Assembly: GCA_049322915.1 (NCBI GenBank)
Contig: JBMOPW010000014.1
Span: 160,001 to 224,000 of the forward strand
DNA: 64,000 nucleotides
From: Candidatus Zhuqueibacterota bacterium
GTDB taxonomy: Bacteria > Zhuqueibacterota > Zhuqueibacteria > Thermofontimicrobiales > Thermofontimicrobiaceae
Reading direction: 5' to 3'
The notes beneath the pieces are model-generated. The model had not been told where the DNA came from. It made no database searches and saw only the letters and a program-made list of their open reading frames with translations. The position numbers and the translations under genes were made by a program. The number at the start of each line of letters is the position of its first letter. The first letter of the stretch is position 1. Below are positions 4,033-19,797 of this stretch, piece by piece.

Positions 4033-5202
4033 ATGAGGTATAAAGGAGCACGACTGTTTCCAGTTTTATTTTTACTTCTTCTCTCTTCTTCATTTTGCTC
4101 CCGGACGCCCGGAGAAGCGCCAAAAAATGTGAGTGACATCATCCAACAGGTGGCACAAAAGCATTGTCCGGATAAACGGGTCTCTGTCTTTCAGGTAGCG
4201 GCTCAAAAACAGAGCCATACGATTATTGTCACCGGCGAAGTGTTGTCCGGCGAGGCCAAATCAGAGGTGGTGAATCGTATTCAGTCAGAGACAGACTACG
4301 AGGTGGCCGATAGCATCAAGGTGCTGCCGGATGATTCGCTGAACGGAAAAATATATGGCGTCATCAAAGTGAGTGTGGCCCAGGTCCGAAGAAACAGCGA
4401 CGTCTATTACGAGACAATCAGCCAGGCGACAATGGGCGCGGAAGTGAAAGTGCTGAAACGAAGAGGCGGCTTCTGGGTCTATTGTCAGCTCGAGGATGAC
4501 TATCTGGGCTGGCTGATGGAAAGCGCGCTTGTGACAGGGGACGAGCAGTTCATCCGAAACTGGCGCAGCCTGGACAAAGTCATCGTGACCGCCACCCATG
4601 ATCAAATCTGGGAACAGCCACAGGCCTCCGGCAAAGCAGTCTCCGATGCGGTCTGGGGCAATGTTCTGATCGACCGCGGCAGCAATGGCAACTGGCGCAA
4701 GGTGGAGTTGGCCGACGGAAGAAGCGGGTACATCCCGGCGTCTTCGGTGATGGATTTGAAAAAGATGGAACAGGTTCCGGGCGATCCTGAAATCATGGTG
4801 GAATTGGCCTATCGGTTCATCGGCATTCCCTATTTCTGGGGCGGTCGCTCGACCAAGGGATTCGATTGTTCCGGCTTCACTCAGACATTGTACAAATCCA
4901 TCGGAATCCAACTGCCGCGCGATGCCAATATGCAGGTGAAAATCGGAGAGGAAGTGGCCATCGACGACCAGTTCGGCCAGTTGAAAACCGGCGACCTGCT
5001 GTTCTTTGGAAAAAGCATCGATAAAATCACTCATGTTGGTTTTTATCTTGGCGACCAAAAATTAATCCACTCCGACGGCCGGGTGAAGATCAACAGCTTT
5101 AATCCGCAGGACGAGGATTACAGCGAGTATCGGAGAAATGGCTTGCAGGCGGTGCGCCGGATTTTGAACGAGAAACAGACGGAACCGATCCTGGAGAAAT
5201 AA
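4033..5202 (+). CDS. NlpC/P60 (C40) gamma-D-glutamyl endopeptidase/dipeptidyl-peptidase with BON-like and SH3b domains (YkfC-like)
   Basis: Signal peptide; PYFWGGRSTKGFDCSG, LPRDA, GDLLFFG, THVG, LIHS catalytic motifs. Adjacent to an Ala-Glu epimerase, as in ykfBC. Confidence 0.88.
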   Translation: MRYKGARLFPVLFLLLLSSSFCSRTPGEAPKNVSDIIQQVAQKHCPDKRVSVFQVAAQKQSHTIIVTGEVLSGEAKSEVVNRIQSETDYEVADSIKVLPDDSLNGKIYGVIKVSVAQVRRNSDVYYETISQATMGAEVKVLKRRGGFWVYCQLEDDYLGWLMESALVTGDEQFIRNWRSLDKVIVTATHDQIWEQPQASGKAVSDAVWGNVLIDRGSNGNWRKVELADGRSGYIPASSVMDLKKMEQVPGDPEIMVELAYRFIGIPYFWGGRSTKGFDCSGFTQTLYKSIGIQLPRDANMQVKIGEEVAIDDQFGQLKTGDLLFFGKSIDKITHVGFYLGDQKLIHSDGRVKINSFNPQDEDYSEYRRNGLQAVRRILNEKQTEPILEK

Positions 5203-5451
5203 TATTTTGGGCGCTGCGATTGAAATTCAGCGCGACGTGAGCCATATTCAGGTTCTCATGCCCGGATGGCTGGAGCATCGGCGCGTGACAGGCGTTTTTC
5301 TGAATGTAGCCCGGCAAGCGAGATCAATCCGGCGCTGACTGAGCCTCCGAAGTGGTTTCGATCTGAGAGTAAAAAAAATGGAATGGCGAACAGCGATTCG
5401 GTGAATTGTTAAATCGAACGCCATTCCGCCAAAACAATGGAGTCGATACCC

Positions 5452-6594
5452 ATGAACATGACACGAAAGCAATTCTTGAAAGCCAGCGGCAAAGCGATCG
5501 TTGGATTGAGCGCGCTTAACGCCGGCGTCTTACCATTCACTCAACTCACTGGTTCCAGTGACCCTATAGGAGGAGCAATGTTAGAATATAAAATTAAAGA
5601 GCTCAATTTGCGACACACATGGACCATTGCCAGAAATTCATCGGATGTGAAACGCAATGTATTCGTAAAATACACGCGCGACGGAATCACCGGCATTGGC
5701 GAAGCAGCGCCGAATGTCCGTTACGATGAGACGCCGGAGAGCACCATCGGATTGATTCAAAAAGCTGAACCGCTGGTGGAGAAGTTCGATCCGTGGCATT
5801 TTGTCGACATGGGCTATGAAATTCAGAAATTGGATAAGGCGCAGACCGCCGGCAAATGCGCCGTGGATATTGCCATCATGGACTGGGTCGGCAAGAGCCT
5901 CGGCGTTCCCATTTACAAATATCTGGGTCTGGATAAAAACAAGACGCCATTGACTTCATTCAGCATCGGCATCGATACCCCGGAAGTGATGCAGGCGAAA
6001 ATTAAAGAAGCGGAAGAATATCCCATCCTGAAAATCAAGGTCGGCAAGGATAACGACGAGGAAATCATGGATGCGGTGCGGGCCGTGACCGATAAGACGC
6101 TGCGTCTCGACGCCAATGAAGGCTGGAAGACAAAAGAAGAAGCGCTGGAAAAAATTTTGTGGCTGGAAAAAATGGGGGTTGAATTCATCGAACAGCCGCT
6201 GCCGTCGCACATGCTGGAAGAACAGCGCTGGTTGCGCGAGCGCGTGAGTATGCCCATCATTGCCGATGAGGCGGTGAAGAGCGCGGCGGACATTCCCAGT
6301 TTAGCAACCGCATACGACGGCATCAATATCAAACTGATGAAGAGCGCCGGCATTCAGGAGGCGCTGCGCATGATCTGGATGGCGCGTTCGTTGGGAATGA
6401 AAATCATGCTGGGCTGCATGATTGAAAGCAGTTGCGCTATCGCTGCTGCAGCGCACATCAGCCCGCTGGTCGATTTCGCCGATCTGGACGGCAACCTGCT
6501 GGTAGCCAATGACCCGTTCCAGTCCGTCAACGTGGTGAAAGGCCGAATGATTTTGAGCGACGCGCCCGGGCTGGGGCTCGAAGGCGAGTTCTAA
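5452..6594 (+). CDS. L-Ala-D/L-Glu dipeptide epimerase (enolase superfamily, YkfB/YcjG-like) with Tat-like leader
   Basis: KIKVG, DANEGW, EQP, ADE, NIKLMK, GCM and DLDG motifs. The start at 5452 has GGAG upstream; the ORF track starts at 5437. Confidence 0.9.
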   Translation: MNMTRKQFLKASGKAIVGLSALNAGVLPFTQLTGSSDPIGGAMLEYKIKELNLRHTWTIARNSSDVKRNVFVKYTRDGITGIGEAAPNVRYDETPESTIGLIQKAEPLVEKFDPWHFVDMGYEIQKLDKAQTAGKCAVDIAIMDWVGKSLGVPIYKYLGLDKNKTPLTSFSIGIDTPEVMQAKIKEAEEYPILKIKVGKDNDEEIMDAVRAVTDKTLRLDANEGWKTKEEALEKILWLEKMGVEFIEQPLPSHMLEEQRWLRERVSMPIIADEAVKSAADIPSLATAYDGINIKLMKSAGIQEALRMIWMARSLGMKIMLGCMIESSCAIAAAAHISPLVDFADLDGNLLVANDPFQSVNVVKGRMILSDAPGLGLEGEF

Positions 6595-7445: not shown

Positions 7446-9725
7446 TTATGGAAGCAGAATCATTTTCTTTGTCTGCGTGAAAGAGCCAGCCTCCAGTCGG
7501 TAGAAATAAATGCCGCTCGATACCGGCTGGCCGGCATTGTCCTTCCCGTTCCATTTTATGTGATAACTCCCTGAAGCCTGTTCCTTCTCCATCAGCGTTT
7601 GAATCGTTTGCCCTAACACATTAATCACCCGCACCGTCACAAAGGACGGAGATTTCAGATAATAGGAAATGACCGTTGTTGGGTTGAACGGATTGGGATA
7701 ATTCTGATACAGCACTGTGGACGTTGGCAGTGTCGGTTCGTCGTCGCGCTGGTCCACCGGGAGATCCAGCAATGCGGCTGCCACATCGATTTTCCCATAG
7801 CCCCATTGATCGTTGGGCATAGTGCCTGTATAGCTATCGTTTCGGCAGGTCTCAATCAGGGAATTCCGCGCCTGAATAGCATCCCGATTCGGATATTTTT
7901 CAAACATGAGCGCGACGACGCCGGCAACGTGAGGAGCGGCCATGCTCGTCCCCTGGGTGAGCGCGTGTTTGTTGTCCGGGCAAATATAGGCATTGGGGTA
8001 ATCGACGCTGCCGGAATTGAAAATTGAATACGTGCCGCTCGGCGGCGCGCTGATCGAATAGCTGGAGGCGATTTTTTCGCCGGGCGCGCAGATTTCCGGT
8101 TTCACGCGGCCATCTCGGGTCGGCCCGGGACTGGAAAAATCCGACACCTCGTTGACCGTCAGTCCGGGGATGTACAGCGAGTTGCCATCCAGATCTGTCC
8201 AGTTCGATTTGGTGACGTAGGAGCCGACAGTGATGGCATTGAACGCTGTGCCCGGCGTGCCGGCAATCATGGTATAGTCAATGTTGGAACTGAAATAGAC
8301 ATCCATAGTGGAGCCGCCCAGCCAGATATCGAACCGGCCAGTAGCGCCAAACACTTTTATTTTCCAGTTGCCGTTCTTGGGCGGCTTATTCGCGTAATAG
8401 TCATAGATCTGAACTAAAACATATTTATCGCCATTCAACGGACTTGGGCCGCCTTTCGCATTAGAAATATAAATCACTCCTTCCGGCGTGTCAAATCCCG
8501 AATCATGACCGCTGGAGACAGGGCCGTAGCTTTCGCCTGATGGGGTGATGATCTGGACGGAATAATTGAAAAGCGCTTCGTACCAGCCATCGAACTGAAT
8601 GATGTCATTCACGTTATCTGCAAGCGGGGTATAGGCCGGCACCGTGAAAATCGATTCGATGGAAGTGGTGCCGCTACCGAAGGCGCCGCTGATGTGAATC
8701 GCTTTCTCGCCATCATTTCCGGCGGAGACAACAACAGCTTTGCCATTGATGCCGGGCCCGACCAGATTATCAATGGCCTGTTCGCCGAGACCTTTACCAT
8801 CGTGCGGGCCGCTGCTTCCACCAAGGCTCAGATTGATGACGTACGGTTTGCCCAACTGTCCGGCGAGACTGTCGATGAAGACTATCGCGTTGATATAATC
8901 GATTTCAGAAAAGCTGATGCTTCCCTGAACCCGGGTTGCCTTGACAATGATGAGATCGGCCTTGGGAGCGACGCCCAGGTAGGTTCCGGCCGCAACGCCA
9001 TTGCCAGTCGCCTGACCGTTGCCGGCGGCGCAGCCTGCGACATGCGTGCCGTGTCCCACAACATCTGATTCATTGATCGTCCCGATGCCATTCAGCGCGT
9101 TATTGATTTCCTGTTCGGTGTACAGCGTGCCGCCATACTGGTCCGGGCCGTCGAGACTGCCATCTCCGTTGGTGTCGCCGGGGTAGCTGAAATCGAGCAT
9201 GGCTTTGATGCGCGTGGTCCCGTTGCTGTTGCGGAAGTCCATGTGCCGCCAGTCGATGCCGGTATCCACCACGCCGATGATGACTCCCTGTCCTGACACA
9301 TTGTATTGCTGCCAGGCTTGAGTGGCTTTGATCTCGCTCAGACTTTCATCCGTGTGAATCGTCAGTTTTTGAGGCAATTGCAGATAGAAAATTCCATCGT
9401 GCCTGACGATGGTTTCGATGGTTGCCAGCGGAACACAGGCGGTGACGATGTCGCCGATCTGCGCCTGGGCCGATACTCCGAGCGCGCGCAGTTCCGTTGT
9501 TGTGAGCGATGTTTTTATCAGCATCGGAATGAATTCAATGGAAGAGGAGGCAGCGCCTTCGGTCAAATGTTTGGTGAGAGCGACTCGCAATTCGGGCCGT
9601 TCCAACATCAGCGCAATTTTGGGGTCGAGTTTTTTATACGCGTCGCCGGACAATTGACCTGCCATCAACGGCACATATAATAGGCTTAAGAATATGGCTG
9701 TAAAAATTTTTGTCTTCAGATTCAT
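7446..9725 (-). CDS. Secreted S8 (subtilisin-like) serine protease with propeptide, internal beta-sandwich insert and FlgD/T9SS-type CTD
   Basis: Catalytic triad motifs VDTGID, GHGTHVAG, QGTSMAAPHVAG; oxyanion SAGNDG; signal peptide; C-terminal QNYPNPFNP. Confidence 0.93.
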   Translation of the reverse strand: MNLKTKIFTAIFLSLLYVPLMAGQLSGDAYKKLDPKIALMLERPELRVALTKHLTEGAASSSIEFIPMLIKTSLTTTELRALGVSAQAQIGDIVTACVPLATIETIVRHDGIFYLQLPQKLTIHTDESLSEIKATQAWQQYNVSGQGVIIGVVDTGIDWRHMDFRNSNGTTRIKAMLDFSYPGDTNGDGSLDGPDQYGGTLYTEQEINNALNGIGTINESDVVGHGTHVAGCAAGNGQATGNGVAAGTYLGVAPKADLIIVKATRVQGSISFSEIDYINAIVFIDSLAGQLGKPYVINLSLGGSSGPHDGKGLGEQAIDNLVGPGINGKAVVVSAGNDGEKAIHISGAFGSGTTSIESIFTVPAYTPLADNVNDIIQFDGWYEALFNYSVQIITPSGESYGPVSSGHDSGFDTPEGVIYISNAKGGPSPLNGDKYVLVQIYDYYANKPPKNGNWKIKVFGATGRFDIWLGGSTMDVYFSSNIDYTMIAGTPGTAFNAITVGSYVTKSNWTDLDGNSLYIPGLTVNEVSDFSSPGPTRDGRVKPEICAPGEKIASSYSISAPPSGTYSIFNSGSVDYPNAYICPDNKHALTQGTSMAAPHVAGVVALMFEKYPNRDAIQARNSLIETCRNDSYTGTMPNDQWGYGKIDVAAALLDLPVDQRDDEPTLPTSTVLYQNYPNPFNPTTVISYYLKSPSFVTVRVINVLGQTIQTLMEKEQASGSYHIKWNGKDNAGQPVSSGIYFYRLEAGSFTQTKKMILLP

Positions 9726-9737
9726 GATGCAGTCTCC

Positions 9738-10118
9738 CTAATATTTTTGAATTTTCCCCAGTGAATCCGATGGTGTCGCTTTTACGGTTCGTGAGCTTTG
9801 AATGGTTTCCACGAATTTCATTTTTGATAAGTCATATACGGCATGCGCCGGAACAGAAGCTGTATAAATAGTCCCGATGTTCGCCATGATTTTTATATCT
9901 CTATTGGAGAGAAACGCTTTGTGTTCTTCACCAATGGGCTCATTGACCTTGAAAATTACAGGAATGCGCGTATTCAACTGCCCGGCTTGTTTCAATTGCT
10001 GAAGCTGTAATTTCAGCCCGGGGTCCACCTTCTTCTCGAAGTCAGCATCTTTGCATGAAAAAACGCTGACTAAAAAAATCGCAATCAAGTATCGTGACCT
10101 GAAAATGAGATTGAACAA
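9738..10118 (-). CDS. Lipoprotein resembling a stand-alone S8 propeptide (putative protease inhibitor/chaperone), 126 aa
   Basis: SD GAGGAGG (10128-10134, minus strand) 9 nt before TTG at 10118. Lipobox-like IAIFLVSVFS-C. The body aligns by eye with the propeptide of the neighbouring S8. Confidence 0.7.
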   Translation of the reverse strand: MFNLIFRSRYLIAIFLVSVFSCKDADFEKKVDPGLKLQLQQLKQAGQLNTRIPVIFKVNEPIGEEHKAFLSNRDIKIMANIGTIYTASVPAHAVYDLSKMKFVETIQSSRTVKATPSDSLGKIQKY

Positions 10119-10587
10119 AATGAATCGCCTCCTCGATAGTAATGATAGGTGCAGACATGGACGAGAAAGAAGCGTGACATCCGTCGAGTGCAAAAAACGA
10201 TCGATGGAATAGCTGCAATGAAAAAACAATCCTGAGTCAGAAATGCAGAGCAACCCCATCAGTTCTCGCCATAGCCCCATTGCAGTAATTTCGTGCTCAG
10301 AAATTGCTCAGTCACGTGTTTGTTTTCTCATCATGTTGCGCAGTTTGAGTGGTTAATATAACAATATTACTGATAGAATCAAAGTGAAATTTAAAATGCT
10401 ACGATAAAATAAATGTGTTGATAGTCACAGCAGGTCAAGTTTAGCGAGCGCCGGCGAGAATTGCTGCAGCGCTTTTGTAGGATAGTGTGGCAGCGAAGAA
10501 GACCGACCTGAATATTCGGGCAGAGTTTGAATCGATGACAATATGCAGTGCGTGCGGAGAATATTCAGGTCGATTGGAGAAAAGACA

Positions 10588-11712
10588 TCAGATTTTCTTT
10601 TCGTAAAGACGATAGGTCTTATACACACGGGCGCCGATATTTTTGAGCGCAATGTTCATTGGATCGTTGTTTTCAAGGATCCAGGAGAACTCGCCCCAGG
10701 TGTATCCTTTTGCAATACCTTTTTTGTAAGTATCGACGTAGAACACAGCATCGAGTCCCTTGTTCCTGTATTCTTTGATGATGCCCATGATGATGACTCG
10801 CAGCCGGCTTATTTTACGGCTAAAGTAGAGAAGTTTGAAAATGCCGAAAGGAAACAAGCGCCCGTTGAGTTTGTGGAGAGCCTGATTAATGTCAGGGCAG
10901 GCCAATGAAAAACCAATGGGCTGACCATCGTGCTCCGCGAAAAAGACAATATCCTCGTCGATAATTTGCACCAGATTTTTGGCGATATGCTCCAGTTCGT
11001 GCTCGGTGAGCGGAACAAAGCCGAAGTTCTTCTCCCAGGCATGGTTGTAAACATACTTAATTTTTTCGAGCTCGCTGGCAAAGTCTTTTTTGTCAATTTT
11101 TCTGAAGGTGAATTTGCTGCGGCTTTTCATCTTTTCGACGACATGGATGACCCGATCGGGCATGGGGTTGTCCTTGCTCATTTCATAGGCCCATAAATCC
11201 ATGATTTTGCGGAAGCCGTATTTTTCAATTAATGCCTGATAATAGGGTGGATTGTGAGGCATGAGAATCACCGGGGGCGTGTCGAATCCGTCGACCAGCA
11301 GACCGCAGGTATCGTTTTGCGAGTAGTTTTCCGGGCCGCGAATGCAATCCAGTTTTTTGCGCCGGCCCCATTCCATCACAGCATCCAGCAATTTCGAGGC
11401 GACTTCATCGCTCTGTATGGATTCGAAAAAGCCGAAGAATCCGACGTTCTCCTCATGAATTTGGTTGTGGCGATTATTCAGAATAGCGACAACCGTCCCA
11501 ACGGCGCGTTTGCCGGCGCGAGCGATGAAAAATTCGGCTTCGGAATGCTCGAAGAAGGGATTGGTCTTTTTATTGAAAACATCCTTTTGCTGAGAGATGA
11601 GGGGTGGCACCCAGACCGGGTCATCTTTATAAATTGTCCAGGGCAGTTTGATGAAGTCATTCCAGTCTTTTCGGGAAGAGACAACAGAGACAGTGATTGT
11701 ATCAGGGTTCAT
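10588..11712 (-). CDS. Two-domain GNAT acyltransferase, probable bacterial ceramide synthase (bCerS/YghO-like)
   Basis: FIKLPWTIYKDDPVWVPPL, NPFFEH, GFFGFFE, GLLVDGF..PP...MPHNPPYY, AWEKNFGFVP, PDINQ and SWILENN..M motifs. Directly downstream of spt. Start at ATG 11712 (SD GGAG); the ORF track gives GTG 11724. Confidence 0.75.
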   Translation of the reverse strand: MNPDTITVSVVSSRKDWNDFIKLPWTIYKDDPVWVPPLISQQKDVFNKKTNPFFEHSEAEFFIARAGKRAVGTVVAILNNRHNQIHEENVGFFGFFESIQSDEVASKLLDAVMEWGRRKKLDCIRGPENYSQNDTCGLLVDGFDTPPVILMPHNPPYYQALIEKYGFRKIMDLWAYEMSKDNPMPDRVIHVVEKMKSRSKFTFRKIDKKDFASELEKIKYVYNHAWEKNFGFVPLTEHELEHIAKNLVQIIDEDIVFFAEHDGQPIGFSLACPDINQALHKLNGRLFPFGIFKLLYFSRKISRLRVIIMGIIKEYRNKGLDAVFYVDTYKKGIAKGYTWGEFSWILENNDPMNIALKNIGARVYKTYRLYEKKI

Positions 11713-11737
11713 GAGCTTCTCCACTTTTATGATGATG

Positions 11738-11792
11738 AAAAAAAACCTGCTTATCCCCCATTTTGTGAAACCGGGACAGGTAAACAGGTTTT
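11738..11792 (-). terminator. Terminator-like hairpin between spt and the bCerS-like gene
   Basis: Arms AAAACCTGCTTA(11742-11753) and TAAACAGGTTTT(11781-11792). The A-run at 11738-11745 gives a U-tract on the minus strand. Confidence 0.5.
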
Positions 11793-11829
11793 AATGTATG
11801 AAAAGATGAGGCAGCATGGAATGGGTTAA

Positions 11830-13020
11830 TCACGATGCAATCAATCCTGATTGTTTGCCAATTTTATAAAATATTTCCAGCACATGATCCAGTTCTTCCG
11901 TTGTATGGGTGGCCATGTAGCTCGTGCGAATGAGCGCATGGTCTGGCTCAACAGCCGGGCTGATGACCGGATTTGAAAAAATACCATTCTCGAACAACAG
12001 CTTCCAGAAGTAGAAGGTTTTGAGATCGTCGCCGATGATGATCGGGATGATGGGGGACTGAGTTACGCCGGTATTAAAACCCATCTCCTCAAATCCTTTT
12101 TTCATTTTATTTGAATTCTTCCACAGTTGCTCCAGCCGCTCCGGTTCGGATTTCAGGATGTCCAATGCGGCATTGACTGTCGCCACGGCCGATGGAGGCA
12201 TACTTGCCGAGAAAATGAGGGCGCGGGCATGGTGCTTAATGTAATTGATGACTTTTTTCTCGCCAGCAAGGAAGCCGCCGAGGGAGGCGAATGATTTGCT
12301 GAACGTGCCCATAATCAGGTCGATGCTGTCGTTCATGCCAAAATGCTCGCCGGTGCCGCGTCCGTGTTTCCCGAGGACGCCGCAGGAATGCGCATCGTCG
12401 ATCATGATGCGCGCGCCGAATTCTCTGGCCAGTTTCGCCATCTCCGGTAATTTAACAATGTCCCCCTCCATGCTGAATACGCCATCGGAAACGATCAATT
12501 TGCCGGCAGTATCGCTGTCGTTGGTTTCCAGCACCCGACGCAGATCGTCCATGTCGTTGTGTTTGAATTTATAAGTGCGACCAAACGAAAGCCGGCAGCC
12601 ATCGATGATGCTGGCGTGATTGGCTCGATCGCTGAACACTAGATCGTTCTTGCCGATGATGGTGGAAATTGCACCCTGATTTGTTTGAAATCCGGTGGAA
12701 AAAACCAGCGTCGCCTCTTTCTGGACAAAGTCGGCCAACTTTTCCTCCAGCTCTTCGTGCAGCGTGAGCGTTCCATTGAGAAACCGTGAACCGGTACACC
12801 CGGAACCGAATGTTTCGAGCGCATCGATGGCTGCTTTTTTGACGCGCGGATCCTGAGTCAAACCGAGGTAGTTGTTCGATCCAATCATGATGAATTTTTT
12901 GCCGTCGATCATCACCGTCGAACCGGCGCCCGATTGAATCGCTTTGAAGTAAGGATAGTAACCCTGAGCCTGTGCTTCTTCAACTCGCGTATAGGTGTAA
13001 GCCTTCTGAAATAAGTCCAA
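11830..13020 (-). CDS. spt: PLP-dependent alpha-oxoamine synthase, probable serine palmitoyltransferase
   Basis: YPYF, GSNNYLGLT, GSRFLNGT, STGFQTN, NHASIIDG, DGVFSMEGD, DDAH, GTFSKS (Schiff-base Lys), IFSAS. TTG start after SD AAGGAG. Gene context: GNAT and SDR neighbours. Confidence 0.8.
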   Translation of the reverse strand: MDLFQKAYTYTRVEEAQAQGYYPYFKAIQSGAGSTVMIDGKKFIMIGSNNYLGLTQDPRVKKAAIDALETFGSGCTGSRFLNGTLTLHEELEEKLADFVQKEATLVFSTGFQTNQGAISTIIGKNDLVFSDRANHASIIDGCRLSFGRTYKFKHNDMDDLRRVLETNDSDTAGKLIVSDGVFSMEGDIVKLPEMAKLAREFGARIMIDDAHSCGVLGKHGRGTGEHFGMNDSIDLIMGTFSKSFASLGGFLAGEKKVINYIKHHARALIFSASMPPSAVATVNAALDILKSEPERLEQLWKNSNKMKKGFEEMGFNTGVTQSPIIPIIIGDDLKTFYFWKLLFENGIFSNPVISPAVEPDHALIRTSYMATHTTEELDHVLEIFYKIGKQSGLIAS

Positions 13021-13066
13021 TTGAGTTCTCCTTATGAATGGTTATCTTATCGCATAAGTCAAGGCA

Positions 13067-13095
13067 AATATAAAAATCATTTTAGCCATTGTCAA
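13067..13095 (-). promoter_or_regulatory. sigma70-type promoter for spt
   Basis: Minus strand TTGACA(13095-13090)-N17-TATATT(13072-13067). Confidence 0.7.
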
Positions 13096-13363
13096 GATTA
13101 AAAGTTTAGTAACTGTAAAATTAATAAAACTACTGTTGCATTTTTTCATTAGAGTTTGTATTTTCAGGAGTAGACAGAGAAAAAAATAGAACCCGATGCA
13201 TGTGTCGGATGCGATCAGCGCTGCTGAACGGCCGCTTTATTCCTGCTCTGTCGCAGTGTGCGGGGAGTACAAAGGATAAAATGAAAATGGGCTTTTCAAG
13301 CCGGGCTGGCCGGCTTTGCCAAAGGCAAATTTACGATCTGTAATTCAAGTCAGGGGAAAATTC

Positions 13364-14344
13364 ATGCGCGTGCTTGTCACCGGCAGCAATGGTTTTATTG
13401 GAAGCCATCTGGTCGAACGGCTTGTGAGCCGGAACGATGAAGTGCTCTGCCTCGTTCGAAAGACGAGTCGTCTCACATGGATAGAGCAACTTCCGGTCAC
13501 ATTTGTCTATGGAGATGTGTGTGACTCGGATTCGCTTCGCTCCATTGTTCAGGGCGTTGATTACGTCTATCATCTCGGCGGAGTTGTCCGGGCCAGATCA
13601 GAAGCGGAATTCATTCGGGTCAATGTCGAGGGCACAAAAAACCTGCTGGAGGCGTGCCGGCTGAACAATCCCCGGCTGCGACGATTTGTGCTGGTCTCCA
13701 GCCAGGCCGCGGCCGGCCCGAGCCCTGACAGGACGCCGCTCACCGAAGACGTCCCGCCTCGGCCAATTTCAGCATACGGCCGGAGCAAAATGCAGGCGGA
13801 GTCCGCAGTGATGAGTTATAGGAGATTTTTTCCGTACACCATTATCCGGCCGCCGTCGGTGTACGGCCGGCGCGATGATGATATTTTTGTCATTTTCAAA
13901 GCGGTAAAATTTGGTGTGAAACTGTTGATCGGCTGGAGAAATAAAAAAATCAGCCTGGTTCATGTCGATGATTTAACTCGGGGAATATGCCTGGCGGCCG
14001 AATCGGATCGGGCGGAGAACCAGGTGTTTTCCATCGCCAATCCGGAGGCGTATGACTGGCTGGAAATTATGAACGAAATCAGTCGCGCACTGGGGACAAA
14101 CGCGATGACAATAAGGATTCCTGAATCGTTACTGAGTTTCATGGCCGGGCTGAATGAGAAGCTCGCCCGCGTCCTGCATTCGGAGGCGGTGTTCAACATG
14201 GACAAAGCGAATGAGATGAAACAGGATTACTGGCTGATCAGCAGCGTCAAGGCGGCGAAGTTGCTGGATTTCAAAACTCAAATCGATCTGGAACAGGGAT
14301 TGAGGGATACGGCGATCTGGTATAAGCAACAGGGCTGGTTGTAA
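13364..14344 (+). CDS. Extended SDR / NAD-dependent epimerase-dehydratase, candidate ceramide (3-oxo) reductase (CerR-like)
   Basis: VTGSNGFIG Rossmann motif, HLGGVVRARS, NVEGT, VSSQAA, YGRSK (YxxxK), RPPSVYG. ATG at 13364 with AGGGG SD. Divergent from spt. Confidence 0.7.
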   Translation: MRVLVTGSNGFIGSHLVERLVSRNDEVLCLVRKTSRLTWIEQLPVTFVYGDVCDSDSLRSIVQGVDYVYHLGGVVRARSEAEFIRVNVEGTKNLLEACRLNNPRLRRFVLVSSQAAAGPSPDRTPLTEDVPPRPISAYGRSKMQAESAVMSYRRFFPYTIIRPPSVYGRRDDDIFVIFKAVKFGVKLLIGWRNKKISLVHVDDLTRGICLAAESDRAENQVFSIANPEAYDWLEIMNEISRALGTNAMTIRIPESLLSFMAGLNEKLARVLHSEAVFNMDKANEMKQDYWLISSVKAAKLLDFKTQIDLEQGLRDTAIWYKQQGWL

Positions 14345-14433
14345 CTGAAGCGAGATCGGCCGGCCAATGCCTCGCGGCTCTTTTCTCTATTAGGAATCCG
14401 AATCGAATGGATTCAAATCGTCAGGAAAAATCC

Positions 14434-14892
14434 ATGAAATTTATCGTCGATGTCATGTTGGGCAAATTGGCGAAGTGGCTTCGAATTCTTGGATACGATA
14501 CAGTGTACGATCCCCATTTTACCGACGATGACCTGTTTTTCAGAGCGCATCAGGAGAGAAGAATTTTACTGACAAGGGATAAACAGCTATCGCAGCGGAT
14601 GAACCCGGACTATACTTTTTTTGTCACAGAACTTTTGGCCCCGCAGCAGGTGAAACAGGTAGTCGAACATTTTAAGCTGGACACAACACATGGCATTTTC
14701 ACCCGATGCACTTTGTGCAATTCGCCTGTCACAGCCATCCCGAAACAGACGGTTCAGGGAAAAGTCCCGGACTATGTATTTCGGACTACAGACCAATTTT
14801 ATTTTTGTCCGGCATGTGAAAAAATCTACTGGCCGGGATCGCACACCAAGCAGGTTCGGGACGCGCTGAAATCCTTATCCGCAGGAACATGA
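14434..14892 (+). CDS. Mut7-C RNase (PIN-like) domain protein with Zn ribbon
   Basis: FIVDVMLGKLAKWLRILGYD, RILLTRD, RCTLCN...CPACEKIYWPGSH. Confidence 0.9.
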   Translation: MKFIVDVMLGKLAKWLRILGYDTVYDPHFTDDDLFFRAHQERRILLTRDKQLSQRMNPDYTFFVTELLAPQQVKQVVEHFKLDTTHGIFTRCTLCNSPVTAIPKQTVQGKVPDYVFRTTDQFYFCPACEKIYWPGSHTKQVRDALKSLSAGT

Positions 14893-15134
14893 ATATGACC
14901 AATGAAGAAGCATTGCGTGAAGAGCAACGAAAAATGCGGCTGTTGAAAACGCTGATCGACTTGACCACAGCCGTTCTTTACCAGGGCAATCTTTCGGTAT
15001 TTGAGACGATCCAACTGATTCATAACACGAAAAAGGCCGTGTTGAAGTTATTCCCGGACAAAGAGGAAACCTACAATCTCATTTACAAGCCGCGGTTTGA
15101 ACGGATATTGAATGAGCGCCTGCAACAGAATTGA
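14889..15134 (+). CDS. Small helical hypothetical protein, translationally coupled to the Mut7-C gene
   Basis: ATGA overlap at 14889-14892. Motif LFPDKEETYNLIYKPRFER looks like a conserved hypothetical. Confidence 0.7.
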   Translation: MNMTNEEALREEQRKMRLLKTLIDLTTAVLYQGNLSVFETIQLIHNTKKAVLKLFPDKEETYNLIYKPRFERILNERLQQN

Positions 15135-15161
15135 TCCTGTTCGATCCGTTGGCAACTGCAC

Positions 15162-16238
15162 TCACGCCAGATCTTTCAAAATGTACAGCAACATGCGGAC
15201 TGCTTTTTCCATGTCCGCCACTGCAATTTTTTCATTGGTGGAATGCTCATTTTGCGCGCCAATTCCCAGCACGGCTGTTTGAATCCCTTTGTTGTTGTAA
15301 ATAGAAGCATCTGTAAAACCCGTGATAAAAACAGCTTTGGGTTCCAAACCGACCGATTGAATCGCCCTGCTGGCGATCTTCACAACCGGACTGGTTTCGG
15401 GAATGCTCACCGCATCGCAAAGGATAGTTGTGCGAACTTCAGCTCTGGCGCCAAATTGATTCACTTCAGAAAGGATGATGGACCGCATCCCCTCGGCCAG
15501 ATCGATCGCTTTCTGATGGTTCAAACTTCGGCACTCCGCCGCAAATACGACTTTATCCGGAACCCCGTTTCGAACGAGTCCTCCGGAAATCGTTCCGATA
15601 TTCGCGGTTGTATCTTTATCCAATCGGCCCAGACGGAGCCTGGTGATGGCGCGGGCAGCCGCCTGAATTGCCGAAATGCCCTTCTCCGGTTCCATGCCCG
15701 CATGGGCGCCCTTGCCTGTAATTTCAACATCAATGGCAACGTACGTGGGCCCGCCGATGACAATGCAGTCCAGAACATCGCCGTCCATGAGAAACCCGAT
15801 CTCCGATTCCAATAATGAAAAATCAAGATTCTTCACGCCGGTGAGTCCGACCTCCTCCTGCCGGCTGACCACAAATTCAATGGGTGGGTGACTATCCGCC
15901 CGGATCAATGCCTCAATCACTTCAGCAATTCCGGCTTTGTCGTCCGCGCCGAGGATGGTATCGCCGCGGGAAGAGATAACGCCCTGCACCAACCCAGGCT
16001 CGATACCTACGCCCGGTTTCACTGTATCCGCATGACAGCTCAACATGATTGGCTTGCGTTGTTTCGATTGTTTTGCCGGCAATTTGGCGATGAAATTGCC
16101 GTACGAGTCACGATGGATTTTAGCATGAAATGTGGAAGCAAAATATTTTTCCAGAAATTGCATCATCTGTTCTTCATTCCCTGATTCGCTGTCGATGGTT
16201 ACCATTTCCATGAACAACTTAATCATTCGGTCAGGCAT
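15162..16238 (-). CDS. M20B peptidase T-like metallopeptidase
   Basis: SCHADTV, GADDKAG, QEEVG, GAHAG, QNEH metal ligands. Confidence 0.88.
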   Translation of the reverse strand: MPDRMIKLFMEMVTIDSESGNEEQMMQFLEKYFASTFHAKIHRDSYGNFIAKLPAKQSKQRKPIMLSCHADTVKPGVGIEPGLVQGVISSRGDTILGADDKAGIAEVIEALIRADSHPPIEFVVSRQEEVGLTGVKNLDFSLLESEIGFLMDGDVLDCIVIGGPTYVAIDVEITGKGAHAGMEPEKGISAIQAAARAITRLRLGRLDKDTTANIGTISGGLVRNGVPDKVVFAAECRSLNHQKAIDLAEGMRSIILSEVNQFGARAEVRTTILCDAVSIPETSPVVKIASRAIQSVGLEPKAVFITGFTDASIYNNKGIQTAVLGIGAQNEHSTNEKIAVADMEKAVRMLLYILKDLA

Positions 16239-16410: not shown

Positions 16411-19400
16411 TCACCGATCGGATAATTGGCCGGCTAATACCACTGTTTTTTTTATCGTCTCTACCAATCCCTTTTCAGAATGAAGCGCCTCCAGGAACAC
16501 AATGTAAATGCCCATCCGACACATAAAGCCCTCGTCATTGAGGCCGTCCCATTTAATGACAGTGTGGATTCCGGCTGGTTGGTTATTGGCCAGAAATCGT
16601 ACCAGCCGGCCGCGGATGTCGTATATTTTCAGATTGATGTGCGCCAGATTGAACGGCAACTGGATGGAGATAACCGCGTCGTCATCCCTGAGGTCGTAAT
16701 CCGGTGAAAACGGATTGGGGGCGATCATCAACTCCGCCCGCCGGGGCAGCTCATCCGCAAAAATGCTGTTCACGCCTCCCGGCGTACTTCCTGAGCCGGA
16801 CACGCTGGAACTCCAATTGGCGACATCTCCGCTGGGACGGCGCGGATTGATCCGTTCCAGCGATGTGCCTGAACCGCCGCCCCAACTGTCAGCGTAAGCA
16901 ACTTCATCAATGACATTGCCATTGGCGTCGAATATGTAAATGGCGTCCTCGTCATTGTTCAATCCTGGCCATGATTCCGGCGCAATCAGGGTCGCGGCGG
17001 AGAATTCCAACTCCGTTGCGAGAGAGGAATCATCGGCCAGAATCAGAAATGAAGATGGCTGAATCGTCGTCGGCGAAAGGGTCAGAACAATGCGATCGGC
17101 GCTGTCGCTATCGGCCCATGTCCAATGCTGAATGTCGACTGCCTCGGTATGGGGGTTGAAAATCTCGATCCATTCCGGATCGCCGGATAAAGGCGCGTAC
17201 ATGATTTCGTTAATCACCAGCGACTGCGCCGCGAAACCAATACTCAGTCGGGCAGACCGGAAATCGTTGGATGGATTCATATCACTGACGAGCGATAGGC
17301 GCGCGCAAATTGTGATCTGGCCGGGCTGTAACGGAATGTACCGGATAGAAGCGACTGCGGATTCTCCGCGTTCCAGCCTTTGCTCAACGGTGATTGTCTC
17401 CCCGATGCGTTCGTCGGATTGCTGCACCCCATCGCCGTTGAAATCTATGAAGCAGTTCAACTGAATAGTGGCGATTTCAGTTATCCCGACGTTGGTCACC
17501 TGAATCGAAATATCGATTTCATCGCCTGGCCCGGGATGAGTCGGAGAAAATGCAATATCGGTGACTCCCGCATCCACTTCCAACGGCGCGACGCTGTTGC
17601 GCATCCCGGGAGTGCCGCCGGCGAAGTCGATGCAAAACGCCCATTGTGCGCTATCCGCAAAGCTGTCCGCCGGATCGAGTCGCTCCAGAGAAATACCAGG
17701 TTTCGACTCCTGGCCAAAGGAATAAGCCATGCTATCGATGGCATGGTCGGAGGCGTCAAACAAGTGGATCTGATCCGAGCTGTTCGTCAAATCCGGCCAG
17801 GTCGTCGGGACCAGAATGGGACAGGCGATTGTGGGAAATGCGCTGAGCAGGACATCATTCTCAGAGAGGATGGCAAAGCCGTGCGGCTGAATGAAAATAT
17901 CTTCTGTGCACGAGAGATAGCGTTTCGATGCACCGCCGTGACTGAATTTTAGCTCGTTGAGATTGATGGCGATGGAATCCGTGTTGAAAATTTCAAACCA
18001 CTCCGGCTGTCCCGAGGCCGGGTGAAACATGACTTCGTTCAAAACGATCTGGCCGCGGCGGATTGGAGCGCGAAAGGGAAGAATGGTAAAATTATTGACC
18101 AGTTCTTCATCTGTATTGCAAATTAGCAAAGCGATAATTTGAATGAATCCGGGATCGGGAGCAGGCAGGGAATGATAGAAAGAAATGGAATCCCCTGATT
18201 CGATTGTGTGATTTTCGAACAACTGCGTGGTCAAAAGCTCCCCGGTCTGGCCCGATGAATCAACATTTTGATCCAGATAAAGCAAATAAGTGAATTCGGA
18301 AATCGGCTTCAATCCGACATTATGAACAGAGACGAAGAAGGAGAGAGAATCAATTGAGTGAGGCGCCAACCAAAGGTGGATATTCAAATCATAGTCCATT
18401 GGACTGAGGCTATTTTTCGCGCCGGGAGTGGCTCCTGTTTCATCCTGGCAGAGGCCCCAGTTCAGCGGATCGCTGGACTGCCCCTGGCTCCGAATGCGCT
18501 CTAATGAGAATCCCGATTCGCTGCCCCATGACGCTGAATAATTCACGTCATCGATGACATTTTGAGCCAGATCAGTGAGCACAATCCAGTCGCCGCTGTT
18601 ATTGAGAGCGGGAAAGCCATCTGCTGGCGTAATCACAGGGCAGGAGATTTCCGGGAATAGCGTAAAAATGGTGCTGTCTTCGGAGATGATGAGGTACTGC
18701 TTGCTATCGATCATTATGTCCGCCGGCGAGATCTCTACCGGCGCATCCAGATGCGAATCCGACACCTTCCATAACTGCACATTTATTGGCGCATCGCCCG
18801 GATTGAACAATTCGATCCATTCGGCTGTGCTGGCCGAAGGACGGAACATGATTTCGTTAATCACGACTGCGTGACGCGTAAATCCAATTCGGGCTTCGAC
18901 CCGGGCTGAATTATTGGAAATGTTCTGATCCTGGTCAAGTTGAACCCGTGCGTAAAAAAGATGCAGCCCACTGCCCCGGGCTTCCATATCTACGGAGAAT
19001 AGCAGGCTGTCACCGCTTGCCAACATCTCCTGTGGAAAATAGGGCTGACCAATCTGCTCCTCCTCCGTCAGGATTGAATCACTGTTTTCATCCTCAAACA
19101 CCAGCACTTCAAAACCGGCGCAGTTGTCGGTGCCAAGATTTGTTACGGAAATCAGGAGCGAGAAATTCTGGTCAGGACCAATGACTGGTGGGGAAAGTCG
19201 CAGCGCCACCCGTACATCGAAAGCAACCTGCCGGACGCTGTTTGGGGCGCCGGGCGTGCCATTTTCAGTCTGGCTGTTCGCCCAGTTTTCCGGCGCGTCA
19301 TCCCCTGACAGATTAATTTTTTCGTCAGAGAAGCCGGGTCGGTTGTCGAGGCTGTAGCGGTAGACGGCAACCGTATCGCCGGCGCTGTTAATGAGAAGTA

Positions 19401-19797
19401 TCGGCTCGGCAACGCTGTTGGACAGCCCCTGAGACCCGAATGCGCTGTCATCGATAATGAGAATGACCGCACTCTCCGGAATGAGGTCGTCGTAAATCTG
19501 GGAGTTATCCCGATAGCCAGAATCGAGTATTAAGCCGAAGCATCCCGGCGCCAGCCGCATGTCCTCAGCCTCAGGCAATAGGAAATCTTTCTCAGCGCTG
19601 TCACTGATGGCCCAGCCAGTCAAATCAACCGTATCGGTGATGCTGCAATTATAAATTTCGACGAATTCGGTGTAGTATTCGCTGCCGGATGGGTCGAACA
19701 TGATTTCCGAGAGAACTATCTGGCAATGGCCGAAGGAAGGAATAAGTGCGCCAAGTAGTAAGAATAGACTGCTTTGAATGGTGGAACAAAAGCGCAT
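16411..19797 (-). CDS. Secreted protein with four lamin-tail domains alternating with CARDB-like Ig domains, plus FlgD-type CTD
   Basis: Four repeats of (N/S)E(I/V)M(F/Y).P...E(W/F).E(I/L)(F/Y)N...SLER...W...TPG..NS. C-terminal IAPNPFSPD...IYDIRGRLVR...WDG. Confidence 0.85.
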   Translation of the reverse strand: MRFCSTIQSSLFLLLGALIPSFGHCQIVLSEIMFDPSGSEYYTEFVEIYNCSITDTVDLTGWAISDSAEKDFLLPEAEDMRLAPGCFGLILDSGYRDNSQIYDDLIPESAVILIIDDSAFGSQGLSNSVAEPILLINSAGDTVAVYRYSLDNRPGFSDEKINLSGDDAPENWANSQTENGTPGAPNSVRQVAFDVRVALRLSPPVIGPDQNFSLLISVTNLGTDNCAGFEVLVFEDENSDSILTEEEQIGQPYFPQEMLASGDSLLFSVDMEARGSGLHLFYARVQLDQDQNISNNSARVEARIGFTRHAVVINEIMFRPSASTAEWIELFNPGDAPINVQLWKVSDSHLDAPVEISPADIMIDSKQYLIISEDSTIFTLFPEISCPVITPADGFPALNNSGDWIVLTDLAQNVIDDVNYSASWGSESGFSLERIRSQGQSSDPLNWGLCQDETGATPGAKNSLSPMDYDLNIHLWLAPHSIDSLSFFVSVHNVGLKPISEFTYLLYLDQNVDSSGQTGELLTTQLFENHTIESGDSISFYHSLPAPDPGFIQIIALLICNTDEELVNNFTILPFRAPIRRGQIVLNEVMFHPASGQPEWFEIFNTDSIAINLNELKFSHGGASKRYLSCTEDIFIQPHGFAILSENDVLLSAFPTIACPILVPTTWPDLTNSSDQIHLFDASDHAIDSMAYSFGQESKPGISLERLDPADSFADSAQWAFCIDFAGGTPGMRNSVAPLEVDAGVTDIAFSPTHPGPGDEIDISIQVTNVGITEIATIQLNCFIDFNGDGVQQSDERIGETITVEQRLERGESAVASIRYIPLQPGQITICARLSLVSDMNPSNDFRSARLSIGFAAQSLVINEIMYAPLSGDPEWIEIFNPHTEAVDIQHWTWADSDSADRIVLTLSPTTIQPSSFLILADDSSLATELEFSAATLIAPESWPGLNNDEDAIYIFDANGNVIDEVAYADSWGGGSGTSLERINPRRPSGDVANWSSSVSGSGSTPGGVNSIFADELPRRAELMIAPNPFSPDYDLRDDDAVISIQLPFNLAHINLKIYDIRGRLVRFLANNQPAGIHTVIKWDGLNDEGFMCRMGIYIVFLEALHSEKGLVETIKKTVVLAGQLSDR

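Follow-up and report, generated by a model that had tools for sequence, protein, structure and literature searches.

A probable Spt-bCerS-CerR dihydroceramide gene trio in an uncultured, likely KSB1-type bacterium

Do three neighbouring genes of an uncultured bacterium encode a route to ceramides? The question is raised by a 64,000-nucleotide (nt) stretch of Candidatus Zhuqueibacterota DNA (hereafter the window; G000:C14:160001-224000, from a genome that is 96% complete), in which a sequence-only reading had described an alpha-oxoamine synthase of the serine palmitoyltransferase (Spt) type, a two-domain GNAT protein likened to the bacterial ceramide synthase bCerS, and a divergently transcribed extended short-chain dehydrogenase/reductase (SDR) likened to CerR. 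All three open reading frames (ORFs) proved intact and are arranged as that reading had them (Table 1). We find it very probable that the trio represents the known Spt-bCerS-CerR pathway to dihydroceramide, in a Bacteroidota-like type without AcpR and AasR. This assignment, made by comparison of sequences, draws on the orthology of all three genes, the trees of the synthase and of the SDR, gene linkage, and the joint absence of the trio across the phylum; from it we infer that the organism produces dihydroceramides. Judging from the names of close relatives, the lineage is likely of the KSB1 type: among the best 120 GNAT homologues, nine of the 12 organism-named records read candidate division KSB1 and the other three 'bacterium', and two close loci (70 and 81% identity) are titled 'uncultured Cytophagia'. 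We take KSB1 to be the same as Zhuqueibacterota and a member of the FCB group.

The pathway described in Caulobacter crescentus uses Spt, bCerS (CCNA_01212 / CC_1154) and CerR (CCNA_01222 / CC_1164) (PMC11087976, PMC9386255, PMC10865984). In Escherichia coli BL21, where the pathway genes are called spt, aca and epi, yghO (ECD_02850) is the homologue of the acyltransferase CC_1154 and ECD_02852 that of the reductase CC_1164 (PMC9386255). When the 24,404 ORFs of the genome were searched with BL21 Spt, YghO and Epi, the top match was in every case a gene of the window, at identities of 37%, 35% (E 2e-76) and 27%, respectively. Homologues from Sphingomonas and Bacteroides finegoldii lead to identical best matches in the genome (the B. 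finegoldii and Prevotella genes being presumed orthologues of tested Bacteroides genes). Best-hit orthology to BL21 agrees with the earlier assignment of the three genes to Spt, bCerS and CerR, and for the SDR it is also reciprocal. The window genes further pass the published BLAST limits (PMC11334938) for Spt and for bCerS (E of at most 1e-30 and at least 50% cover), the GNAT doing so with the YghO query at E 6e-75 and 98% cover (database size 1e8). The CerR limit of E 1e-30 is passed with two of three stand-in queries, Sphingomonas (3e-35) and B. finegoldii (4e-47), and is narrowly missed with the E. coli query (5.9e-30). This miss tells against the assignment, as does the standing of the E. 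coli BL21 query genes themselves, which are homologues with a suggested function only (PMC9386255).

To which class does the synthase belong? The four motifs previously picked out as Spt-type (YPYF, GSRFLNGT, NHAS and GTFSKS) are all present; NHAS and GTFSKS occur in a BioF as well, and only YPYF, GSRFLNG and FSAS help to discriminate Spt. All motif blocks checked agree with Bacteroidota Spt, and the protein is 50-55% identical to its Bacteroides and Parabacteroides homologues. Its nearest match in the PDB is Spt (3a2b/8guh, E 7e-140), 3a2b being the serine-using enzyme of Sphingobacterium multivorum; the next family is BioF/Kbl (E 2e-89), presumably of the Thermus type. The catalytic Asn, His, pyridoxal phosphate (PLP)-binding Lys and Arg are kept, as mapped by motif and offset (Table 1). 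A quick tree of 58 rows, which had an open backbone, was replaced by a 23-row tree (LG+G4, without HemA) drawn from the same set, leaving out duplicates, many KSB1 relatives, a long C20 row and a Thioclava row. In this tree a branch with support of 100/99 places the synthase with Spt, apart from BioF and Kbl, and the KSB1 synthases form a clade of their own (99/97). Approximately unbiased (AU) tests on the KSB1 rows rejected their grouping with Kbl (p=0.0002) and with BioF (p=0.003). The phylogenetic check that had been proposed, as far as it covers Spt, BioF and Kbl, favours Spt over the other two.

Several results weigh against a straightforward Spt assignment. The top NCBIfam model of the synthase is NF047600 (the CFB-type Spt equivalog), at 573.5 bits; this is under the cut-off of 640 bits, and the synthase is not assigned to that equivalog. 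The cut-off is reached in none of 145 phylum genomes, each at least 80% complete, whereas a Bacteroides thetaiotaomicron control passes. Lower scores still, in each case below the cut-off of the model, came from the remaining models for Spt, BioF, Kbl and HemA. Joining the KSB1 rows to BioF and Kbl together, which does no more than let them branch first within the Spt group, was not rejected (p=0.086), and in BL21 the best match of the synthase is Spt by a narrow lead over Kbl (265 versus 253 bits). Finally, an Spt-side enzyme is encoded on a Priestia plasmid without GNAT or SDR neighbours, so that position in the tree alone is no proof of ceramide synthesis. This plasmid synthase (Priestia megaterium NZ_CP137804.1, L085:6001-7215) is 52% identical to that of the window; an acyltransferase and a methyltransferase are its neighbours, and no YghO-type or SDR gene is annotated beside it.

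Could the trio keep its three-step chemistry and yet have something other than serine-derived ceramide as its main product? The synthase would then prefer alanine or glycine, giving 1-deoxy backbones, or another amino acid. Alanine is usable by Spt, and 1-deoxy and other unusual ceramides have been reported in anoxic water (PMC11334938); a substrate shift would also sit well with the separate clade of the KSB1 synthases and their scores below the curated NCBIfam cut-off. Against it stand the agreement of every motif block checked with Bacteroidota Spt and the distance, in E value, between the serine enzyme 3a2b and the next structural family. We regard such a preference as unlikely, and serine as the probable substrate.

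Like the E. coli gene ECD_02852 (Epi), the SDR opens with its Rossmann strand and shows no signal peptide. The two are reciprocal best hits; searched in BL21, the window protein finds Epi at E 6e-27 versus 4e-15 for the runner-up. In a 26-row tree it falls within a clade of 14 rows (95/92), together with three KSB1 relatives, E. coli, Sphingomonas, three Bacteroidota and five spt/GNAT-linked SDRs of other phyla, whereas HpnA and eight other SDRs of the window genome lie outside. With its extended-SDR motifs, the protein is thus probably what the sequence-only reading had proposed, a divergent extended SDR of the CerR type. Sequence identity is low, at 27% with E. coli Epi and 27-29% over the proteobacterial genes compared, which counts against this and lends some weight to a different reading. 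In it, spt and the GNAT gene give an oxidized ceramide, the SDR merely happens to lie beside them, and the reduction falls to a different enzyme, such as a classical SDR resembling BT_0972. B. thetaiotaomicron BT_0972 does reduce 3-ketosphinganine in vitro (PMC9278070), and the top NCBIfam model of the window SDR is HpnA, at a score far below cut-off. An unrelated SDR would, however, have to account for the reciprocal best hit, for the 95/92 clade, for its divergent location next to spt in 67 of 118 genomes, and for its absence along with spt from five, which makes this reading quite improbable.

A third possibility, with a cysteate acyltransferase (SulA/CapA) as the synthase and a sulfonolipid as the product of the cluster, is very improbable. 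The PDB matches of the synthase do include cysteate acyltransferases (28eh, E 1e-78; 7u7h, E 4e-74), at scores far below those of the Spt structures. Sulfonolipid synthases are recognised by Lys281, where Spt has Ala (PMC9304779); the window synthase has A272 in this place, 30 residues past the PLP lysine K242 (mapped by offset). That the synthase is a BioF or Kbl with incidental neighbours, a view that can call on the second-best PDB family and on the fact that none of the four synthases of the genome stands beside BioF, is the least probable of all, given that the AU tests reject both groupings, that two Kbl-type genes lie elsewhere in the genome (one of them following a tdh-like gene) and that a genome search gave no match to BioD. 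For BioB, nothing in the genome scored above cut-off. A very divergent alpha-oxoamine synthase, 27% identical to that of the window and on a long branch, is encoded at G000:C20:17974-19212.

For the GNAT, the claim of two domains is only faintly visible in the sequence (Pfam PF00583, E 1e-5; profile probability of the N-terminal half against the C-terminal half, 9%) and is borne out by the fold. The AlphaFold model (predicted local distance difference test score 91.7) has the tandem GNAT 7q3a as its best fold match (Z 24.6; root mean squared deviation 3.5), with 304 residues aligned and residues 3-374 spanned. No PDB match was found by sequence at E of 1 or below, no NCBIfam model matched, and no bCerS entry is among the fold matches listed. 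A common fold gives no function, and the predicted assignment to bCerS rests on homology and linkage. The backbone of the GNAT tree is without resolution, which weighs against this assignment.

How widely is the trio kept? The counts refer to the 145 genomes introduced above, with score limits that we chose, the Spt limit being fixed after a gap in the scores had been seen. The GNAT family was detected in 139 genomes, a figure in which paralogues are counted, the Spt-type synthase in 129, the SDR in 126 and all three in 118. All three went undetected in five genomes of family f8 (G025, G127, G128, G130 and G131; 83-98% complete). Four of these five were searched again with E. coli YghO (E 1e-5), with no match in any of them, whereas the f8 control G133 matched. 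Other f8 genomes keep the trio, and the absence likely reflects loss of the whole pathway; the five genomes come from two genera of one family and therefore represent one or two events, which lessens the weight of the joint absence. In 67 of the 118 genomes with both, the SDR is divergent from spt and no more than 800 nt away, and the GNAT gene comes after spt in 78 of the 120 in which both were listed (a listed GNAT match having been entered for 126 of 139 genomes); the complete layout is present in at least 37 of the 145. Owing to broken assemblies, these linkage counts are lower bounds. The frequencies of the divergent SDR and of the following GNAT gene argue that the arrangement is not due to chance. 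Outside the phylum, an identical layout (SDR divergent from spt, then GNAT) is found on a plasmid of the cultured Aureispira anguillae (L082), and spt-GNAT-SDR runs occur on Streptomyces and Rubrobacter plasmids and in Gemmatimonadota and planctomycete loci.

In the proposed mechanism, the PLP enzyme would form 3-ketosphinganine from L-serine and a long acyl thioester, the tandem GNAT would place a second acyl chain on the amine, and the SDR would act on the 3-keto group, reducing it to give dihydroceramide. The reductant is likely NADPH, which an Arg after the second strand (here Arg32) indicates as the preferred cofactor. The order of N-acylation and reduction is disputed (PMC11087976); we favour acylation before reduction, by analogy with Caulobacter, in which oxidized ceramide accumulates without CerR. 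The acyl donor is likely to be acyl-CoA or a housekeeping acyl-acyl carrier protein (acyl-ACP), the AcpP of the genome being encoded at C36:122631. This follows from the lack of a recognisable AcpR/AasR pair: the genome has no orthologue of E. coli AcpR (best E 0.01) and none of AasR, whose best match is a domain of a 1696-residue protein on contig C45. That protein (G000:C45:174972-180062, at a contig end) has a fatty acyl-AMP ligase-like N terminus and an ACP domain. A second stand-alone ACP gene (C11:118435), examined as a candidate for acpR, was set aside (E 0.01, no sphingolipid gene near); it encodes an AcpP-like protein (G000:C11:118435-118698), follows a putative sugar-nucleotide transferase gene and lies outside the fab cluster.

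The absence of an adjacent ACP gene, remarked on from the start, holds for the whole contig, C14 having none of the 19 PF00550 matches of the genome. It is expected of a synthase of the Bacteroidota-like subgroup. The requirement for AcpR and AasR belongs to a Rhodobacteria subgroup (PMC9386255), and the window trio differs from that AcpR/AasR-dependent five-gene type in having no acpR by spt and no AasR orthologue in the genome. The genome does have lpxC and a single LptF/LptG pair, so that ceramide would add to lipopolysaccharide and not replace it. Caulobacter has a dedicated exporter, LptF2/G2 (bioRxiv 10.64898/2026.04.12.717747); none was found in this genome.

Set beside Caulobacter by description, the window trio has the same kinds of enzyme, namely a PLP-dependent alpha-oxoamine synthase, a tandem-GNAT acyltransferase and an extended SDR, and likewise no transmembrane helix is expected (highest 19-residue hydropathy 1.2-1.4). 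Unlike Caulobacter, the genome has neither an AcpR/AasR gene nor a second LptF/LptG pair, the synthase is of the Bacteroidota-like subgroup, and no head-group genes flank the trio. Caulobacter CerR is periplasmic (PMC11087976), whereas the window SDR carries no signal peptide. The E. coli BL21(DE3) locus yghO-aasR-epi-acpR-spt (ECD_02850-02854), related by best-hit orthology of spt, yghO and epi, has five genes plus lptFG in another order, compared with three genes here. The likeness to Bacteroidota lies in the nearest solved Spt, 3a2b, and in the lack of a dedicated ACP; in the Bacteroides records examined, however, the three genes are unlinked, and the window synthase also stays below the NF047600 cut-off. 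Black Sea genomes hold an 'Spt-like' clade B, with which the trio shares co-location; the window genes mostly pass the BLAST limits of that study (PMC11334938).

The chemistry and the gene set have already been described, and by sequence comparison the window trio is likely a functional, sound but ordinary example of them. The pathway has been predicted in 38 phyla of one basin and 40 in all (PMC11334938). KSB1 is not named in the available main text of that paper or its preprint, the supplementary phylum list of which may include it; with the same proviso, a literature search found no paper connecting KSB1 or Zhuqueibacterota with the ceramide pathway. A search coupling yghO with ceramide returned PMC9386255 only. 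If the assignment is right, ceramide synthesis would be a near-core trait of an uncultured phylum (118 of 145 genomes), KSB1 would be an added candidate producer of environmental sphingolipids, and the five genomes of one family without the whole trio would offer a natural contrast.

Table 1. Coordinates of the trio and associated features in the window, and of the two bCerS-family paralogues elsewhere in the genome (contig coordinates)
Feature	Position	Strand	Details
spt, serine palmitoyltransferase-like alpha-oxoamine synthase	11830..13020	-	396 aa; N50, H135, PLP lysine K242, A272, R365
Tandem-GNAT N-acyltransferase, YghO/bCerS family	10588..11712	-	374 aa; ORF open from 11724
Extended SDR, CerR/Epi group	13364..14344	+	326 aa; TGxxGxxG, N87, S112, Y138, K142
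Candidate promoter of spt-GNAT unit, sigma-70-like TTGACA-17-TATATT	13067..13095	-	Consensus match only
Divergent intergenic region, spt / SDR	13021..13363	.	343 nt
Paralogue B	C3:3150-4244	-	Directly after its own extended SDR; 34% identity to window GNAT
Paralogue C	C16:192031-193233 (L002:8032-9234)	-	Third YghO-family GNAT

The spt gene has a TTG start codon with AAGGAG 7 nt upstream. It had been described as immediately followed by the GNAT gene; this is the case in gene order, the two being separated by a gap of 117 nt. The GNAT ORF is open from a GTG codon (378 residues), but its start is likely the ATG at 11712, because GGAG lies just upstream and the database copy has 374 residues. 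The SDR starts with ATG, preceded by GGGGA, at the far side of the intergenic region from spt. It is likely that spt and the GNAT gene share one transcript and that the SDR is on a divergent one. The promoter-like site, located 47 nt ahead of spt, has 11 of 12 consensus matches and is the top of 13 such sites in 9700-15200, compared with 7.1 ± 2.6 in shuffles; terminator-like sites showed no excess over shuffles (10 versus 6.0 ± 2.4).

More open than the trio itself are the bCerS paralogues. Besides the window GNAT (A), the genome carries two further YghO-family genes, B and C, each forming a 100/100 clade with its relatives in the GNAT tree. Paralogue B and its SDR together span G000:C3:3150-5253 (L001:3150-5253, minus strand); this SDR adjoins B in 7 of 16 loci, lies outside the CerR clade and groups weakly with another E. 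coli SDR. Paralogue C is strongly conserved within the class, at 60-81% identity to its counterparts at 19 other loci, and has no conserved neighbour across 20 loci; here it lies between the genes for a glycyl-radical enzyme and an M28 peptidase. At least two GNAT-family matches were found in 84 of the 145 phylum genomes, a number that may include split genes. With YghO as query, both B and C pass the BLAST limit that has been published for bCerS, so that surveys may overcount bCerS. As a tentative idea, which we think doubtful, KSB1 might run a multi-synthase ceramide system, comparable to the mammalian CerS set, in which one Spt feeds three deeply separate bCerS-family enzymes (A, B and C) that use different acyl chains or acylate other amines. 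Were this true, the phylum would be an unrecognised source of diverse sphingolipids in anoxic waters and sediments. Repeated YghO-family genes also occur in other organisms: an Anaerolineaceae locus (L052:225-4249) has three in a row, and L045, L047 and L049 (from 3622 or 6001 on) have tandem pairs, two of these three loci being titled Cystobacterineae, with no spt in the stretches examined.

Two flanking genes, one for a Mut7-C protein (14407-14892) and one for a 180-residue protein (9738-10280), were considered as parts of the cluster and set aside, as they adjoin the trio in close relatives only. The latter ORF (minus strand) has no Pfam match and is kept downstream of the GNAT gene in family f1; next after it comes an S8 peptidase whose C terminus carries a sorting domain (7446-9725, minus strand). 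Further out, an SH3/NlpC-P60 peptidase gene followed by one for an enolase-superfamily epimerase (4033-6594, plus strand) forms a pair that we presume to serve murein-peptide recycling. On the other side of the trio, 16411-19797 (minus strand) encodes a secreted protein of 1128 residues with four lamin-tail domains, a CARDB domain and a FlgD-like end.

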